Shown: piece after piece, positions 901 to 56,138 of the stretch
How positions within the stretch are numbered: position 1 is the first letter of the stretch
How the letters are laid out: the number at the start of each line of letters is the position of its first letter
From: Chrysochromulina tobinii
Lineage: Eukaryota
DNA: 63,023 bases
Reading direction: 5' to 3'
NCBI GenBank assembly: GCA_001275005.1
Contig: JWZX01003152.1
Location: 1 to 63,023, forward strand
Made by a program: the position numbers and the translations under genes
Notes under the pieces: generated by a model
Seen by the model: the letters and a program-made list of their open reading frames with translations, nothing else
What the model was told of the DNA's origin: nothing
Databases searched by the model: none

Positions 901-2511
901 ATGCAGGCCACGATGGCTGCGCCCTCCACGGCGCCGCCGACGGCGCCGCAGCGCTTTGACCCGTCGGTCGATCTCGTCACCGCGGCGGACGCGCTCTTCG
1001 AGGCGCTCTTTCCGCTGCTCGACCGCGACGGAAGCGGCTGGGCCTCGGAGGAGGACGTCATCGCGGCGCTGATCTGCTCGGTGGGCACCGAGGAGCGCGC
1101 GCGCGTGGCGCTCGCTCGCGTGACCGAGTCGGGCCACGTCGATCAGCGATGCCTGCGCGAGCTCATCGAGGCGCAGATGCCGCCGCAGACGGGCGAGAAC
1201 GGCGCGCAGTGGCACGTGCGGCTCGTCCGCTTCGTGCTCGCGATCATCCGCGACTTTGAGAAGCGCGCAATCGACCGCGGCGACTTCGTCGCGTCGGCCG
1301 AGGGCCGCGAGGTCGCGCGCCACGTGCGCGAGATGGAGCAGCGCCGCGCCTTCGCGACGCTCGAGGCGCTCAAGAGGGAGCAGCACGGCGGCCTCCGGCG
1401 CGGCCAGGTGGCCGAGGCGCGCCAGTTCAACAAGGAGTGGACTGTGCGCATGGCGGAGTTCAACAACCACGCGCGGCGCGCGGTCGCCGAGCTGCGCGCG
1501 CGCCACGAGGCTGCCGTCGAGGGCTTCATCGCCGAGCATCGCCCGCAGATGCACGATCAGTTTAAGCGCACGCACCACGCGCAAGAGACGCTGGACGCCA
1601 AGTTCACGCTCACGCGGCTCACCCTCGCGGAGGAGTTCACCGAGGCGAACAAGTACGCGAAGCGCGTGCAGCAGCTGACACGGCGCGACGCCGAGGAGGC
1701 CGCCACGCTCAGCGAGCTCGCACTGCAGAAGAAGCTCGACGTGCTGCGCTGGCAACAGAACCTCGAGCTCCGCGGGCTCCTTGCCAAGGTCGCGCGGCTG
1801 CTCGAATGAGGGCTGGAGACCCCCCTGCCTACCCCCTGCCTTGCATGCAACTGCTCACCACGGCGCCTCGTCCCTCGTTCACACCTCGTCCCTCGTTCAC
1901 ACCTCGTCCCTCGTTCACAGGTCGCGAGGCTGCGCTCGGAGCACCGGGGCGCTTGGGAGGAGGGGCTGTCGCGGCTGGTGCTGAGTCAGCGAAACACGCT
2001 GCAGGCGCTCGATGCCAAGCAGAAGGTCGATTCGAGGCACGCTGCTGAGGCCGTCCGCAGGATGCTCGAGCCCGCGGCGACGCCCAAGGCCGAGCCAGCT
2101 GCACCCGTGCGTTCCAATCTCGCACTGCTCTCGCCGCGCGGTGGGGTCTATCGCGCCGTGGCGCCTGCCCACGCAGCAGCCGTGGCGCCCGTGCAGAGGC
2201 CCAGCCGAATGGTCGCCGCCGCCTCGGCGCGCGCCTTCTCAGCCGCCAGTGGGCGCGGCGGCGGCGTCGACATGAACACGCCGGCGCCGCCTAAAATATT
2301 CCTCACCGGGACAAGCGAGCTACGCCCGCCCTCGCCGCCCTCGCCCACAGCCGTTCACCCGCCGCGCCCGATCTCGAGCTTTCACGAGCCCGTGCAACTC
2401 GCACCACCTCCTCGACCCATCGGCTACTCCGCTGCCTCGCCGCGCACGCCGCGCACGCCGCGCGCTGGCAGCGTGCAGCTCCGAGCTCGCGTGCGTGGGA
2501 TCGAGATGTGA
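901..2511 (+). CDS. Coiled-coil protein with N-terminal EF-hand-like loop; exons 901-1788 and 1921-2511
   Basis: DRDGSGWASEED loop; phase-0 intron AAG|GTCGCG...TTCACAG|GTC joins ORF 901 to ORF 1978..2511 in frame. Confidence 0.75.
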
Positions 2512-5153: not shown

Positions 5154-6572
5154 ATGACCAACTATACGACATCCAACAACCTCGCACTCGAGTCCACCTT
5201 CGATGTGCTCTGCGGCTCACCGCAGATCAAGCGCCAGCCGTCCTCGGCCAAGGGCGACCGCTTCCTTCCCCGGCGCGCCGCGATGGACCTTGACGTGTCC
5301 CGCGACGAGCTCTACAACGACTCCAACGCCGAGAACGCCGATGCCAACGGCTCCGTCGCGGGCAACGTCGTGACCGCCTCGCCGGCCAAGGAGGAGTACA
5401 ATTCGCAGCTCGCCAAGGTCCTGGGAAAGGACCGGACAGCCAAGGTGCTCGCCTTCAAGGAGAAGGCGCCCAAACCCGCGGAGGACCACCAGCAGTCGAT
5501 GCGCGCGCTCTACACGCAGAACCGCGAGGCGAGCGCGCAGCCACGCAAGTTCTCGCGCCACATTCCGAACGCCCCCGAGCGCATCCTGGACGCTCCCGAG
5601 CTCCTCGACGACTACTACCTCAACCTGCTCGACTGGTCCTCAACGAACGTGCTCGGCGTGGCGCTGGGCGCGTCGGTCTACCTGTGGAACGCGAATGACG
5701 GCTCGATCGACCAGCTCATGGAGACGTCGGCCGACTCGCACGTGACCTCTCTCAGCTGGATCGAGCAGGGGCACTACATGGCCGTTGGCACCTCGGACCA
5801 CAAGGTCCAGATCTGGGACGTGGCGAAGAAGAAGCAGCTGCGCTCGATGGATGGGCACTCGCAGCGCGTCGGCGCGCTCGCTTGGAACGGCCCGATGCTC
5901 TCTTCAGGCGGGCGCGACGCGCGCATCGTGCAGCACGACGTCCGGGCGCAGCAGCACCTGACCGCCACGCTCAAGGGCCACACGCAGGAGGTCTGCGGCC
6001 TCAAGTGGTCGGCCAACGGCACGATGCTCGCCTCCGGCGGCAACGACAACTTGCTCAACATCTGGGATGACCGCTACCTGAGCGCATCGACCAACGTCTG
6101 CGAGACGCCGCTCCACCGCATTGAAGCACACCGCGCCGCTGTCAAGGCTATCGCGTGGTGCCCGTGGCAGAAGAATCTGCTCGCGAGCGGTGGCGGCACG
6201 GCCGACCGTTGCATCCGCTTCTGGAACGCGACAACCGGCGCGTGCCTGAACCAGATCGACACGCACTCCCAGGTGTGCGCACTGCAGTGGTCCAAGCACG
6301 AGAAGGAGATTGTCTCGTCGCACGGCTACTCGCACAACCAGCTCATTCTGTGGAAGTACCCCTCGATGGTCAAGGCGGCTGAGCTGACCGGCCACACTGC
6401 GCGTGTGCTGCACATGGCCCAGTCGCCCGACGGCCAGACCATCGTCTCCGCTGCCGCCGATGAGACCCTTCGCTTCTGGAAGATCCTCTCCGGCGGCGAG
6501 CAGGCGAAGAAAGAGAAGATGCTCTCGCATGTCTCGTCGCTGACCAACCCCCACTTGACCTCGATCAGGTAA
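5154..6572 (+). CDS. CDC20: APC/C activator CDC20/Fizzy (WD40); probable 5'UTR intron 4886-5127
   Basis: C-box DRFLP, KVLAFK Mad2-binding-like motif, ERILDAPELLDDYYLNLLDWS, WD40 repeats, C-terminal IR tail. Confidence 0.96.
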   Translation: MTNYTTSNNLALESTFDVLCGSPQIKRQPSSAKGDRFLPRRAAMDLDVSRDELYNDSNAENADANGSVAGNVVTASPAKEEYNSQLAKVLGKDRTAKVLAFKEKAPKPAEDHQQSMRALYTQNREASAQPRKFSRHIPNAPERILDAPELLDDYYLNLLDWSSTNVLGVALGASVYLWNANDGSIDQLMETSADSHVTSLSWIEQGHYMAVGTSDHKVQIWDVAKKKQLRSMDGHSQRVGALAWNGPMLSSGGRDARIVQHDVRAQQHLTATLKGHTQEVCGLKWSANGTMLASGGNDNLLNIWDDRYLSASTNVCETPLHRIEAHRAAVKAIAWCPWQKNLLASGGGTADRCIRFWNATTGACLNQIDTHSQVCALQWSKHEKEIVSSHGYSHNQLILWKYPSMVKAAELTGHTARVLHMAQSPDGQTIVSAAADETLRFWKILSGGEQAKKEKMLSHVSSLTNPHLTSIR

Positions 6573-50091: not shown

Positions 50092-52650
50092 ATGCCAGCC
50101 GACGAATCGCTAGTCGAGGCGTCCGTGAGCGACATCAAACGCGTGCTCAACCTCGAATCCATGGAGGTCTACCACAAATCGCTCACACCGTTGAAGAGCA
50201 GTTCGTTAGATAGCGCGCCAGATGAGGGCGAGCTGCGTGAGGTGATCGAGGAGCTTATCCGCACAGAGAGCACGTTCCTGCGAGACATGCGCTTCACTGT
50301 GAGGAATTTCGCTCTGCCGCTGCGCGAGTTGCTCGACGCGGCACAGGCAAGAGCCATCTTCTCCAACCTTGCGCAGATCCTCGAGCTGCACGCGCGCCTC
50401 GTGAGCGCGCTGCCAGAGCCGGAGGCACGCACCAACCTGCCGACGAGCTCTGCTGCGCGCTTCAGCAGCCACGCCACGTCGCTCGGCTCGCGGACGAGCG
50501 GCGGCGACGACGGCTGTGGCGGCGTGTGCGGCGCGCACGGCACGAGCTCTTCGTCTGTCGCGGCCAAGGCGCAGATCGTTGCGAGCGCCTTTGTCAAGCT
50601 ACAGCCCTTTTTCAAATGCTACACCTCGTACTGCGGCAACTACCCGTACGTGTCGGGGGCGCTGCTCAAGGCACGCAGCAGCCTTCGCGTGTCCTCCTTT
50701 TTGGAGGGCATGGAGCTCACGCACTCGATATCGCTCCAGGCCCTCTTGTTTCGACCGGTGCAGCGCTTGTGCGCCTACCCGCTGCTGCTGCAGCGGGCTC
50801 TCAAGCACGTTCCTCAGGCACACCGGCTGCATGCGCCGGTGGAGGAGGCCTTCAGCGTGATGCAGCAGATGGTGACGCAGGTGAACGAGCAGATGCGCGC
50901 ACAGGAGGCGCAGGTGCGCATGCTGTGCGCCCTCCTGTCCGACGTCACGAACGCGCCACCTGTCGAACATCTTCTAGCGCCCGATCGCTCTCTTGTGCGC
51001 GAGGCAGTCGTCCACATGAAATTGACGAAACTGACCAGCGGCAGCGCCTCTGGCAGCGCCTCAGGCAGCGCCTCTGGCAGTGCCTGTGCAGCAGCGGGGT
51101 GGCAGAGCGGCAGCTGGCTTGAGGGCGAGGATGACGACGCCTCGATCAGCGCTGCCCACCACGACGCCTCGATCAGCGCTGCCCACCACGACGCCTCGAT
51201 CCGCGCTGCCCACCACGACGCCTCGATCAGCGCTGCCCACCACTCGTTCAAGCGCTGCACCAGTACTCCCAAGCCCCTTGGCACGCCCTTGGCCGATGCG
51301 CTGCAGTGGGGGCGGCGGCGCGAGTACAGATGGTACGTGTTCAGCGACATGCTCATGGTCTGCCAGCCGCAGCTGAGCCTCTTCGGTGGCGAGAAGAAGA
51401 AGCTGGCGTGCCGAACCTTCTTTGAGCTGGCCGATCTGCGCGTCGTGCCGAGCACGGGCTCCACCCTCTTCCCACAGCCGGCTGCAGGCGTCGTGCCGAG
51501 CACGGGCTCCTCCCTTTTCCCACAGCCGCCTTCATCTCCATCGCAATCTCCATCGCAAACTCCATCACGAGAGGCTGATGGCGCCGTGTCGGGCCTCTTC
51601 GGGAGCATCAGCGCCACGGACGCCCAACACGGCGCCAAAGACGAGCCATGGACGCCCAACACGGCGCGGGGCACACCCGCAGGCTTGAGCCGCGTGCCTT
51701 CGAGCTTGAGCGCTCTCTCTCGGAGCGCCTCGATGAAGAGCGTCATCAGTGAGTGCTCGCGGAGCGCCTCGATGAAGAGCGTCATCAGTGAGTGCTCGAG
51801 GAGCGCCTCGATGAAGAGCGTCATCAATGAGTGCTCGAGGAGCGCCTCGATGAAGAGCGTCATCAGTGAGGATGAGGAGCTAGCCGAGGCGGGCGGAGGC
51901 AAGGCGCAGAAGCCCGAGGTCCTCCGCCTGATCTACCACGGCGCCGAGTACAAGTGCTGGGCCACCTCCGAGGCCGAGATGGCGGCCCTTGTGCACCAGA
52001 TTAGCCAGCTGCAGCGAGAGCATGCAATGCGGGTAGAGCGCAACTCGCGACGCTCGTTCTCGTTCAGCTCAGCCGATCGGCAAATGAGGGCCGCCGCAGA
52101 TTGTGATGCGCTTTGGACCCCCCCGCAGAGCCATGTGCCCGACGACACGCCGTCCCAGGGGCTTCCCAAGAGCCCGCACCACCCTGGACCCTCACCGCGA
52201 CATTCACATTCACATTCACACCACCCTGGACCCTCACCGCCCAACAACCTGCGGTTGCGGTGGGGCGGTATAGCTCGGCATGCGTTGCCCGCGTCGCTCG
52301 CATCCTCTCGGCCTGTGAATGTGAATGAGGCCTCGCTTGCATGCATCCGTTGCCCGCATGCATCGCTTGCATCCGAGGCCACGGTCGATGGCGCCGCCAC
52401 TTCCGCTGCACGCTGGCAGGCCGCGCATGCCACCGTCGCTGCGGCCCCCGAAGAGGAGACTCTACTAGACGTCCTTGCTGAGGCGGCCACCGCTTCTCGG
52501 CGTGCAAAGCGGACGAAGCACGCGGCAGCCATTCGAGTGCAAGCTGCCTACCGTGGCAGTTCATGCCGCCAGTCCGCCGCCACATTCACATTCACATCCA
52601 CTGGCCGCCAGTCCGCCGCCGTTGGCCGCCACTGCGCCATGCTGCATGGT

Positions 52651-52715
<65 letters not shown>

Positions 52716-55700
52716 TGAGGATGAGGACGAGGACGAGGACGAGGACGAGGATGAGGAGGGGGCGGCGGCGGAAGACGTGATTCTAGCCGTTGAGCCGGCG
52801 CCCACGGCGGCGCCCACGCCGCTGCGGCCGCCGTTTCGAAGGACGTCGATCTCCCTCGATCTCCCTCGCGGCGTCCATCAGAGCTCTCGATCTCCCCCGC
52901 GATCTCCTCGGAGGTTGACGCATGAGCTCGGGGAGCAGATTGCCAGATTAGGCGAGCTGCGTATCCGTCCGCTGCCGCCCGCAATGCCCGAGCCCCCGCC
53001 GGGGTATGAGCGCCGCCTCGGCGTGATGCCTCCGCCCAGGCTCTTCCCGTTACCCGTCGACAAGTGCGCGTCGGAGGGTTCCGTTCCCTCTCGGCCTGTG
53101 AATGTGAATGAGGCATCGCTTGCATGCATCGAGGGCTACATTCCCTCTCGGCCTGTGAATGTGAATGAGGCATCGCTTGCATGCATCGAGGGCTCCGTTC
53201 CCTATCGGCCTGTGAATGTGAATGAGGCATCGCTTGCATGCATCGAGGGCTCCGTTCCCACTCCCGCGCCAACGAGCGGCTCGGCGGCTTCCCCACTCGC
53301 TGCGATGCCCTCGATCTCCCACGATCTCCCTCGATCTCCCACGGCGCCACCGCCACTCCTCTCCGAGCTCGGCATCTCCCACGATCTCCCTCGATCTCCC
53401 GCGGCGCCACCGCCACTCCTCTCCGAGCTCAGCCGCTCGCCCGGCTCGTCGCCTCGAGCGTCGCCTCGGGCGTCGCCACGGGCGTCGCCTTGGGCTTGGC
53501 CACCGACGGATTGTGTATGGAGCATGCCCGGACACCCCTCGCCAACAAGAGCCTCACTTGATCTCCCACGATCTCCCTCGCCAACAAGAGCCTCACTTGA
53601 TCTCCCACGATCTCCCTCGCCAACAAGAGCCTCACTTGATCTCCCACGATCTCCCTCGCCAACAAGAGCCTCACTCGATCTCCCACGATCTCCCTCGCCA
53701 ACAAGAGCCTCACTTGATCTCCCACGATCAGTGGACACGCGCTTCGTTCATGCATCCATGCGCTTCGTTAATGAGGCCGACGATCGCCCATCAGTGGGCA
53801 CGCGCTTCGTTAATGAGGATGACGATGGCCCATCAGTGGACACGCGCTCGTGTATCATCCATGACGACGCATACGAAGCATCCGCCGCCGCGACGCGCGT
53901 GGCGGCGGCGACACGTGCGGAGAAGGCCAAGCACGAGCGCCGTAATGAGCGCCGAGCGTGCCGAGCGGCGGCAGAACGAGGCGCTGTACCGAGCACATCA
54001 GCGCCGCCCTTGTGGATGACGTTTGCGATCCAGACGCTGCAGCACGCGCAATCTCAATCCAATCTGGAGCACGCGCAGCTGAGCGTGCGGCTGGAGGAGG
54101 CACGTCGGCTCCTCGAGAGCGAGAGACAGGCGGCCGCTCGGCGCGAGGCTGCGCTGCGCTTCGTCAACAGGCTTCGTCAACAGGCGGCCGCGCGGCGCGA
54201 GGCTGAGCTGCGCCGCCAGATGCGTGAGCGCAGTGAAGCTGCAGAGGAGCGCGAGGCTTCGGTGCTCGCGGCGGCGCGCGCCCGGGAGCACGCGCTTCGT
54301 CAACAGGCGAGTGCCCGGGAGCACGCGCTTCGTCAACAGGCGAGTGCTGCCAAGCTGAGGGCTGAGGAGGCGAACGGCGCTCGGGATGACGCTCAGGACG
54401 GCGCTCGCGTGCCTGGCATTCGCGACGAGCGCCTTCGCGCGCTCCGAGCGTACTTCTCGCCTTCATACTCGACGCTCAGCACGACGCGCAAGAGCCCCGG
54501 AGGCCCGTCGAGCGCCGTCTCGAGCGCCGGCTCCGGCTCCTCCGCCTTTACGCCAGCGTCCTCTGCCACCTCACCGGATGCCTCGATGCCGCCCGAGTGG
54601 CCGGGATCTACAAGAGGTTCGTCAAGAGGTTCGTCATCGACGCCACCCGAGTGGCCGAGTTCGTACTGTGCGCCGCCCGCGCACCCTTGGAACGTACCGG
54701 TCGCTCTGCATGCAAGTGCTCACGATGACGCCCGCGCACCCTTGGGACGTACCGGTCGCCCTGCATGCAAGTGCTCACGACGGCGCCCTCCCCCCTCTCC
54801 CCACAGGTGCGCACCCTTGGGACTGGGTCGTGCCGGTAGTGCCGGTAGTACAGGTCGTGGACTTGTGGCTCCAGTACGCCGCGGCGACGCTCGTGCAGGC
54901 CCGTTGGCGCGGGCGTCTCACACGGCGCGCGCTCCCGAAGCATGAGCGCCGTGCTGAGCACGAGCGTCGTGCTGAGCATGAGCGTCGTGTCGAGCATGAG
55001 CGTCGTGCTGAGCATGAGCGCCGTGCTGAGCGGCCTTCTGTGCTCTTCGAGCAGTTGGAGCAGCTCCGGAAGTTTGTGCCGCCGGACCCGGGGCGATGGT
55101 TCACAGCCCTCTTCACACGCGTACCCCCCGCACTCGCGCGCTGCTGGCCGCCGCCTGCGGAGGCAGCCGTCCCCCTCCGAGCGCGCCGTGGTGAGCACTT
55201 GCATGCAGGGCTTTGGGAGGCAGCCGCCCCCCTCCGAGCGCGCGAGATCGTCGGCGAGATCGCCGGTGAGTCGTTCAAACCCCACAGCCTCGGTCTGGGC
55301 GCCGTCTCGGGCGACCTTCGCGATGTACTCTCTACCGGTACCGCCTCAGGCAGCACCTTGGAGGGCAGCTGCTCAAGTGCGAGCGCCGTCTCGAGCGTTC
55401 ACGGATTGGACTCGAGGGCGATCTCGCGGGCAATCTCGAGGGCAATCTCGCCAGACGGCGGCGCGCTGTCCAACGCCTCGCCCCGTGGTGCTGATGGCCT
55501 GCATGCAAGTGCTCACCACGGCGCGATGTCCAACGCCTCGCCCCGTGGTGCTGATGGCCTGCATGCAAGTGCTCACCACGGCGCGATGCCCAACGCCTCG
55601 CCCCGTGGTGCTGATGGCCTGCGTGCAAGTGCTCACCCCGGCGCGTTATCCAACGCCTCGCCCCGTGGTGCTGATGGCCTGCGTGCAAGTGCTCACCACG

Positions 55701-56138
55701 GCGCGCTGTCCAACGCCTCGCCCCGTGGTGCTGATGGCCTACATGCAAGTGCTCACCACGGCGCGCTGTCCAACGCCTCGCCCCGTGGTGGATCGCTGCG
55801 TGCCTCGCCGTGCGACACGGCCGAAGATGCGCTCGGGCTCGGCGCTCGACCTCGATGCCGGAGATGAGGCGCTTCTGTGGAAGGAGGACTGCCTGTGGAA
55901 TCAGAGGCAATCCGAGGCAATCAGAGGCAATCAGAGGCAATCAGAGGCAATCACGGACCTGCTGTGGAAGGAGGACTGCCTGTGGAACGAAGCGCTTCTC
56001 TCGGGCCGTATGACGCTCGCGAGCGCCGTCTCGAACGCCGAGGAGGAAGCGCCGTCGCGAGCGCTCGAGTGGAGCATCACCTCCGAAGTCTACCAGGCGA
56101 GCGACAGCAAGGTGACCTCGTATTACACTTTGGCCTGA
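50092..56138 (+). CDS. Dbl-family RhoGEF (DH + PH-like) with IQ motifs and many tandem repeats; predicted intron 54668-54806, 3' frame junction unresolved
   Basis: EELIRTE..F, IFSNL, Y..YC.NY, L.RPVQRL..YPLLL; IQ motifs AAIRVQAAYRG and AATLVQARWRG. Confidence 0.75.
53074..53259. repeat. 57-nt x3 tandem; the minus strand reads like an intron 3' end; extra copy at 52304-52347
   Basis: Minus strand TGCATGCAAGCGATGCCTCATTCACATTCACAG|GC. Confidence 0.9.
53536..53728. repeat. 39-nt x5 tandem built on GATCTCCC units
   Basis: Encodes PSPTRASLDLPRS x5. Confidence 0.92.
55460..55790. repeat. 60-nt x5.5 tandem carrying the TGCATGCAAGTGCTCACCACGGCG cassette
   Basis: Units are directly visible at 60-nt period. 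Confidence 0.95.
55875..55987. repeat. (AATCAGAGGC)n filler flanked by a perfect 26-nt direct repeat
   Basis: CTGTGGAAGGAGGACTGCCTGTGGAA at 55875-55900 and 55962-55987. Confidence 0.95.

Follow-up and report, generated by a model that had tools for sequence, protein, structure and literature searches.

A Chrysochromulina tobinii intron composed of a copy of the next exon and sequence of a dispersed cassette family

A 132-nt intron of Chrysochromulina tobinii, located in a 63,023-nt stretch of contig JWZX01003152.1 (the window), begins with a copy of the start of the following exon and otherwise consists of sequence belonging to a dispersed cassette family. The intron works like an introner yet fails the test of end-to-end likeness, and its sources are unusually directly evidenced. 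Our best reading is that selection for clean splicing filters the products of microhomology-guided template switching during break repair. We assign a probability of roughly 0.6 to one-step intron birth, in which a repair polymerase switches by microhomology onto an existing intron and back. The origin of new spliceosomal introns is a long-standing open question, and most gained introns have no traced source; in the cassette family, the source, the target and the junctions can be resolved to the single base, and parent can be paired with daughter. Empty alleles exist in lakes, and the alga is culturable.

Structure, splicing and age of the focal intron

The host gene encodes a 492-aa haptophyte protein that sources name EF-hand domain-containing, with no Pfam family above cut-off. 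The original prediction described an intron whose 5′ end copies the start of exon 2 and which holds a shared cassette and a triplicated acceptor region, and each of these elements was recovered. The near-repeat of AGGTCGCGCGGCTGC (1787–1801) and AGGTCGCGAGGCTGC (1919–1933) is identical at 14 of 15 positions, 12 of the 13 after the AG. Both the donor copy and the exon-2 start encode VARL, the sole difference lying in the Arg codon (CGG/AGG). The window contains 6,662 13-mers that begin with GT, of which only 3 agree with the exon-2 start at 12 or more of 13 positions (exon 2, the donor and a single unrelated position), so the likeness of the donor to exon 2 is not due to chance. The cassette pattern at 1842–1864 gave eight window matches at up to three mismatches, against 0.00 expected from 100 shuffles. 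The 18-nt acceptor unit is present 3.0 times at 100% identity (1866–1919), with no AG between the cassette core and position 1919.

Splicing was assessed in assembled RNA contigs, not reads, from lake samples, so that an intron-less allele is a conceivable, though not a likely, source of the contigs. The predicted junction 1788^1921 was found in two of the four RNA runs compared (X12 and X13, from studies P11 and P12), whose contigs skip 132 nt with GT..AG ends; no joint was found at this intron in runs X11 and X14. The X12 and X13 contigs reach 220–255 nt on the short side and cover 411–428 nt of exon 1 without a difference from the window. Retention of the intron leads to an in-frame stop, and its removal gives a frame of 492 aa. 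The near-identical predicted proteins listed that reach the site all run into the intron, except for the annotated C. tobinii protein P0015, which is the spliced 492-aa sequence.

The exon-2 copy accounts for 13 of the 132 nt, and about 119 nt are family sequence. Positions 1802–1841 align with the upstream part of the copy at locus L056, which has the same core variant as the focal intron (Table 1). The putative branch A of the focal intron is at 1857, 63 nt away from the AG; in the family, the branch-motif A lies mostly 22–30 nt before the acceptor. An interpretation of 1802–1824 as a gapped, longer copy of exon 2 was rejected, with 31% of other exons scoring equally. An Rfam scan of 1700–2000 returned three matches, all with E of 5.5 or worse, and the six pairs of inverted repeats found in 1500–2300 include none at the intron ends. 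No parent copy was found among the compared family copies, and no other core occurs within 50 kb to the right of the intron.

Table 1 Features of the host gene and further family sites in the window
Feature	Position	Strand	Basis
Exon 1	901..1788	+	Translation, RNA contigs over most of the exon, homologues
132-nt phase-0 GT-AG intron, in-frame stop at 1807–1809	1789..1920	+	RNA joints; absent from P0015
Target duplication copying nt 1–13 of exon 2, source of the GT donor	1789..1801	+	Sequence repeat
Family-derived 5′ part of the cassette, with 11-nt slippage repeat at 1821–1841	1802..1841	+	Alignment with L056 copy
Cassette core, AACT variant, with motif GCTCAC at 1853–1858	1842..1866	+	Family matches
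Pyrimidine tract, 18-nt unit triplicated in the window allele, single in a related strain	1866..1919	+	Repeat analysis, read-through proteins
Acceptor AG	1919..1920	+	RNA joints
Exon 2, coding part to stop codon	1921..2511	+	Translation, RNA, P0015
Family site with two cores in 55-nt tandem, tract to 54806, next sequence repeated upstream (candidate intron)	54674..54823	+	Sequence
Family core between direct repeats of ~30 nt ending in CAG (candidate intron)	55150..55240	-	Sequence
60-nt tandem array of 5.5 units, unit of local sequence plus core	55459..55790	+	Sequence

Homologues with 43–67% identity read through the intron site with no insertion, as judged from predicted proteins on long contigs rather than from their DNA (P0036, up to 12,016 nt; P0052, 11,050 nt; P0054/P0127, 8,846/9,154 nt; P0049, 4,504 nt). 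Since proteins predicted by the same sources end at the intron stop in intron-bearing strains, we infer that the homologues are gene calls made on genomic DNA without splicing. At the DNA level, 57 pattern matches in genome contigs yielded 0 confirmed orthologues. Judged from these protein sequences, the intron is a gain of this lineage. The proposal that it is young holds in a relative sense only: it is common to strains about 3% apart in protein, and its exon copy is already one base off. Only a single acceptor unit is present in this intron in a strain with 97% protein identity (read-through proteins P0002, P0025, P0026, P0030, P0033 and P0034), and the triplication is therefore allele-specific, later slippage.

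The cassette family and its flanking exon copies

The family was characterized in at least 121 loci (at least 128 stretches) from a metagenome scan together with the window, comprising 705,311 nt of Chrysochromulina-type DNA. At up to four mismatches, 356 cassette matches were obtained, 308 with distinct flanks, some of which are alleles of one site; a reduced set of 225 copies in 98 loci was obtained by dropping 24 redundant loci and collapsing arrays. As with introners, similar sequence is thus found in the introns of unrelated genes. Away from the search seeds, 37 copies were present in 330,668 nt (~1 per 9 kb), a density that may run high because contigs were picked for containing one copy; the window is sparser. 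The C. tobinii genome is described as 59 Mb with 16,777 genes and about one intron per gene, and the available part of that description makes no mention of the cassette repeat (PMC4580454). If about one copy per 9 kb held over 59 Mb, there would be several thousand copies. The cassette pattern gave 0 matches in the viral contigs and 0 in the genome contigs collections.

Each cassette consists, in order, of a 25-nt core containing a branch-point motif, a pyrimidine tract and CAG. The first AG after the core is preceded by CCCCAC in 131 cases, and is followed by GT in 159 and GC in 32. The branch-motif positions of the core are nearly invariant across copies, and the 185 acceptor-type copies have 170 different pyrimidine tracts. 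Both cassette ends vary between copies, with cuts falling even within the core, and 6 of 300 copies were classed as keeping both family ends. Orientation is sense in 137 of 140 neighbour calls. Of 5 sites with the AACT core, 3 have one particular tract type, which is found at 3 of 302 other sites. A short palindrome in the core, GCATGC, is intact in 140 of 158 non-seed copies, a count anchored on the right half; under such anchoring, 108 of 266 non-seed matches lack the left half, and many are probably chance matches. This weakened an initial suggestion of strong selection on GCATGC. A predicted hairpin fold of the cassette was given no weight. Splicing was also shown at locus L005, where run X13 has four joints that take out cassette introns (81, 71, 133 and 79 nt) with ends as predicted. 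Among the joints listed for this locus, 11 of 15 are cross-repeat artefacts, and the 3 of 8 cores without a joint among those listed are no evidence either way.

The 185 acceptor-type copies, defined by full flanks and a pyrimidine tract, were scored for an upstream copy of their own next-exon start, with a threshold score of 10 or more. Such a copy was found in 120, compared with 0.4% of mismatched pairs. It also occurs at 12% of 345 AG|GT sites away from cassettes, and this DNA is accordingly rich in short duplications anyway. When any flank was considered, a duplication was present in 203 of 288 scored copies, against background rates of 0.8% in mismatched pairs and 7.3% at 1,380 random sites. 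The exon copies in 100 single-copy introns are 10–44 nt long (median 26) and start with GT in 80 cases and GC in 10; perfect copies of up to 37 nt directly abut the cassette. The introns themselves measure 60–95 nt in 97 of the 100, and their lengths modulo 3 (31/36/33) show no bias toward multiples of three. A mirror type was also observed, in which a family donor module at the 5′ end is followed by a 13–31 nt copy of the end of the previous exon (12 of 22; control 0%).

One end of these introns is therefore a locus-specific exon copy, and likeness to the family does not extend to both exon-intron boundaries. Features of MITE-type elements are also missing, as the focal intron has no terminal inverted repeats, the family ends vary and the duplication length is not fixed. 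For the 64 of 94 introns with a confident frame, exon-copy mismatches amount to 3.4, 3.3 and 6.6% at codon positions 1, 2 and 3, and 33 of 37 third-position mismatches are synonymous. This pattern is that of ageing, and an error-prone enzyme making the exon copies is unsupported. Core mismatches do not rise with exon-copy mismatches and so cannot serve as a clock.

Parent copies, alleles and the origin of the introns

The introns at the unrelated loci L021 and L111 have 69 nt in common at 100% identity, including 18 nt of upstream flank that is mostly L021's own exon copy. The block opens with 5 bases present in both exon copies and closes with 7 that the two next exons share, and no other likeness to L021 was found outside the cassettes in the 623 nt of L111. 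Non-consensus flank of 9–23 nt is common to 19 pairs among 300 copies (~12 independent; 7 within one locus), and further parent-daughter cases are L028 (two sites), L049 (two sites, 9 shared exon bases) and L118/L077. In four pairs, the flank is one copy's own exon duplicate, which identifies that copy as the parent. Of 4,595 random pairs, 0.7% have seven or more exon-start bases in common; sharing of exon starts is raised by the need for donors to resemble each other. As the identical sequence extends into the exon of the parent, copying would have been from DNA or unspliced RNA and not from an excised lariat.

At the 19 junctions where the duplicate abuts the core, microhomology of at least 3 nt is present in 6 (3.2% expected) and absent in 7. 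Neighbouring copies are also related: 32 neighbour pairs less than 3 kb apart have the same core variant, versus 17.1 ± 3.9 in 2,000 permutations (maximum 31; 225 copies), and within the same locus upstream flank is shared by 14.8% of pairs at less than 1 kb and by 3.3% beyond 3 kb.

Among 10 allele pairs, one site shows presence or absence of a whole intron, with L082 filled and L013 empty in sequences 97.6% alike. In the 63-nt L082 intron, a 10-nt copy of the exon is followed by filler, core, tract and CAG, and a family donor is lacking; the same protein results after splicing. The empty allele reads GG|GT, not AG|GT. The empty allele could also be a precise loss. No full-length introner was seen on one side of an allele pair in the 10 pairs. 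L051 (position 706) and L091 have the same intron with the acceptor exchanged between two family types.

Other indels were noted between alleles. L004 and L074 (~170–240) differ by a 63-nt insert of 11-nt units between direct repeats, with a GT near its start and a repeat ending in CAG, which corresponds to a mirror-type build with another payload; a second indel of 65 nt lies nearby. Further indels of 96–97 nt and longer separate L040 from L057 and L013 from L044, one being an extra tandem cassette unit within an existing intron. L083 and L118 were dropped as alleles, as L083 joins the left side of L077 to the right side of L118 in the shared cassette. L083 is probably an assembly chimera and possibly a real recombinant; shared cassettes may cause mis-joins in short-read assemblies.

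The original prediction attributed the intron to duplication of an AG|GT proto-splice site. It correctly described a real intron, specific to this lineage, whose birth involved a duplicated next-exon start, but a plain tandem duplication does not account for it. Given the ~119 nt of family sequence in the focal intron, an AG before the donor in only 33 of 88 GT- or GC-starting copies and the GG|GT of L013, the acceptor comes with the cassette and the duplication gives the donor only.

Microhomology-guided template switching in break or fork repair is linked to polymerase theta and related pathways. In the pathway we propose, a 3′ end left by breakage or stalling within an exon, 10–45 nt past a GT, would anneal through a few bases to a family intron, often nearby. 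Synthesis would then copy the core, tract and CAG together with a variable amount of parent flank, as the shared blocks suggest, and the strand would return home at a G|GT match upstream of its departure point, thereby duplicating the exon piece. In the resulting introns, the GT of the first copy is the donor, the cassette AG is the acceptor, and splicing restores the old protein. The same geometry would yield the mirror product, with the cassette bringing donor and branch motif and the copy of the previous exon's end bringing the AG. Selection would retain only sense-strand products of 60–95 nt that splice cleanly, and later slippage would account for the triple acceptor and the tandem arrays. 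Since each survivor is a new template, the family would amplify itself without a dedicated transposase. Two features agree with break repair: the adjacent exon is directly repeated on the far side of the insert, and microhomology is present at switches. Against template switching, the shared blocks could equally stem from ectopic conversion between existing introns (cf. L051 and L091), the near-total sense orientation also fits an RNA intermediate, and 7 of 19 abutting junctions have no microhomology. The focal intron is itself less typical, with a short 13-nt copy and an AG before the donor.

The long variable duplications and ragged ends could alternatively be the signature of an enzyme, if a Replitron-like HUH Rep transposase, or a non-LTR reverse transcriptase priming on intron-containing RNA, mobilised a non-autonomous element. 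Replitron-1 of Chlamydomonas is described with variable duplications and a fuzzy end from the parent flank, both of which the cassette displays, and C. tobinii is reported to have one Replitron locus (10.1101/2022.12.15.520654). The largely intact GCATGC palindrome also speaks for an enzyme, variable 5′ truncation with sense bias would suit reverse transcription, and the tie of the AACT core to one tract type is as subfamilies would show. We nevertheless consider an enzyme unlikely. The family is variable at both ends, and target-primed reverse transcription needs a 3′ end that the mirror type does not have; with no tract, the mirror type also departs from SINE and non-LTR elements, whose fixed 3′ end with a poly(A) or simple-repeat tail was not found in the family. 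Copies cut within the palindrome still make introns of the same build, and the number of different tracts speaks against few master copies. The RG target and terminal direct repeats of Replitrons are missing as well: RG precedes the donor at only 50 of 100 sites, and no terminal direct repeats were seen. Later overwriting would instead start from an ordinary full-length introner of ~70 nt with both splice sites and a short duplication, its ends being replaced by conversion from spliced cDNA, the empty allele or other introns. Such a course could explain the copies that retain both family ends, the acceptors that differ between alleles at one site and the relic of the family 5′ part in the focal intron, and 70-nt introners with 4-bp duplications are reported in marine Chrysochromulina (PMC9860276). 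It is made improbable by the L082 intron, which is polymorphic, hence probably recent, and already has an exon copy in place of a family donor, by the lack of a full-length version in the 10 allele pairs, and by daughters that carry their parent's exon copy.

A plain tandem duplication of an AGGT exon segment that later decayed, with the cassette added afterwards, is a recognised kind of mechanism (PMC3443670) and agrees with the AG before the focal donor and with the abundance of short tandem duplications in the analysed DNA. We judge it very improbable, as the exon-2 match covers a tenth of the intron at most rather than its whole length, 55 of 88 copies lack the upstream AG, the empty allele reads GG|GT, and perfect copies abut the cassette. 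The nearly invariant branch-motif positions would also be expected of an old intron whose ends are alike by chance and which holds a conserved motif for splicing instead of a copied cassette. That account is scarcely credible when the site is uninterrupted in four homologue clusters on long contigs, the chance of such likeness is ~1 in 6,660, and unrelated loci have an exact 69-nt block in common.

Template switching of this kind would unite two proposed routes to new introns, break repair and intron transposition or introners. More tentatively, and at slightly less than even odds, the family may be a self-amplifying, transposase-free intron factory running on host repair, one that has made thousands of introns, is still at work and escapes introner screens, since every copy has host sequence at one of its ends.

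Relation to described systems and further observations in the window

A literature search, with subscription journals outside its coverage, found no description of the cassette family. In bins of marine Chrysochromulina, introners have been reported that include one bringing its own 5′ site and flanked by 4-bp duplications (PMC9860276); by their description they are set apart from the cassette, although the two may overlap. A large introner screen demands similarity up to the exon-intron boundaries and, in the portion available, lists 0 families for C. tobinii (PMC12130899). A probable route to mass intron gain would be absent from its C. tobinii results. The proposed process suggests that screens requiring end-to-end likeness undercount intron-making sequences. 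Like the cassette, the introners of these two reports are dispersed, intron-creating, ~70 nt long and nearly all in sense orientation, with one splice site carried and the other taken from the target duplication. Their duplications are 3–9 bp, as opposed to a variable 10–44 nt, and the cassette differs further in its ragged ends, its two mirror-image forms and the parent flank carried along. Family fam24 of Emiliania huxleyi (PMC12130899), compared by description, is similar in being from a haptophyte, ~69 nt long, co-opting its 5′ site and carrying its 3′ site. It has 5 copies only, and is described with '10bp terminal direct repeats' and a mechanism given as unknown.

Introns attributed to staggered double-strand breaks in Daphnia (PMC4202315) likewise end in a repeat of the adjacent exon, show repeated secondary insertions and are polymorphic. 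Their repeats are 4–12 bp, and the accessible description names no shared insert family, whereas the cassette is a recurring intron end with traceable parents. In AGGT tandem duplication (PMC3443670), as in the cassette introns, a duplicated exon gives the GT donor; the cassette, in contrast, brings acceptor and branch motif from outside, and most of the intron is not an exon copy. Replitron-1/N1 of Chlamydomonas also has a palindrome near its end. Replitrons differ in their size of 0.9–3.6 kb, defined terminal direct repeats and RG target, and the available text does not describe them as intron-forming (10.1101/2022.12.15.520654).

A second payload was observed in the form of decamer arrays of the CTGATTGCCT / CTGATGACCA type, with a branch-like motif per unit. 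There are 96 such arrays in the metagenome loci, and one in the window (55899–55953, minus strand) lies between direct repeats of more than 20 nt. The family donor module looks built from decamer-type units. The region 52300–55800 of the window is dense in tandem duplications of 10–60 nt; one of them, at 53074–53263, has a 57-nt unit that terminates in a motif containing GCATGC. The right half of the core resembles a 12-nt head-to-tail unit in coding-like sequence (ALTTA or APTTA) at L012, L014, L049, L072 and other loci, and a unit of this type is also found at 916–947, near the start of the host gene. A CDC20/Fizzy-like WD40 gene occupies 5154–6000 and beyond (PF24807, E 1e-51, partial sequence).
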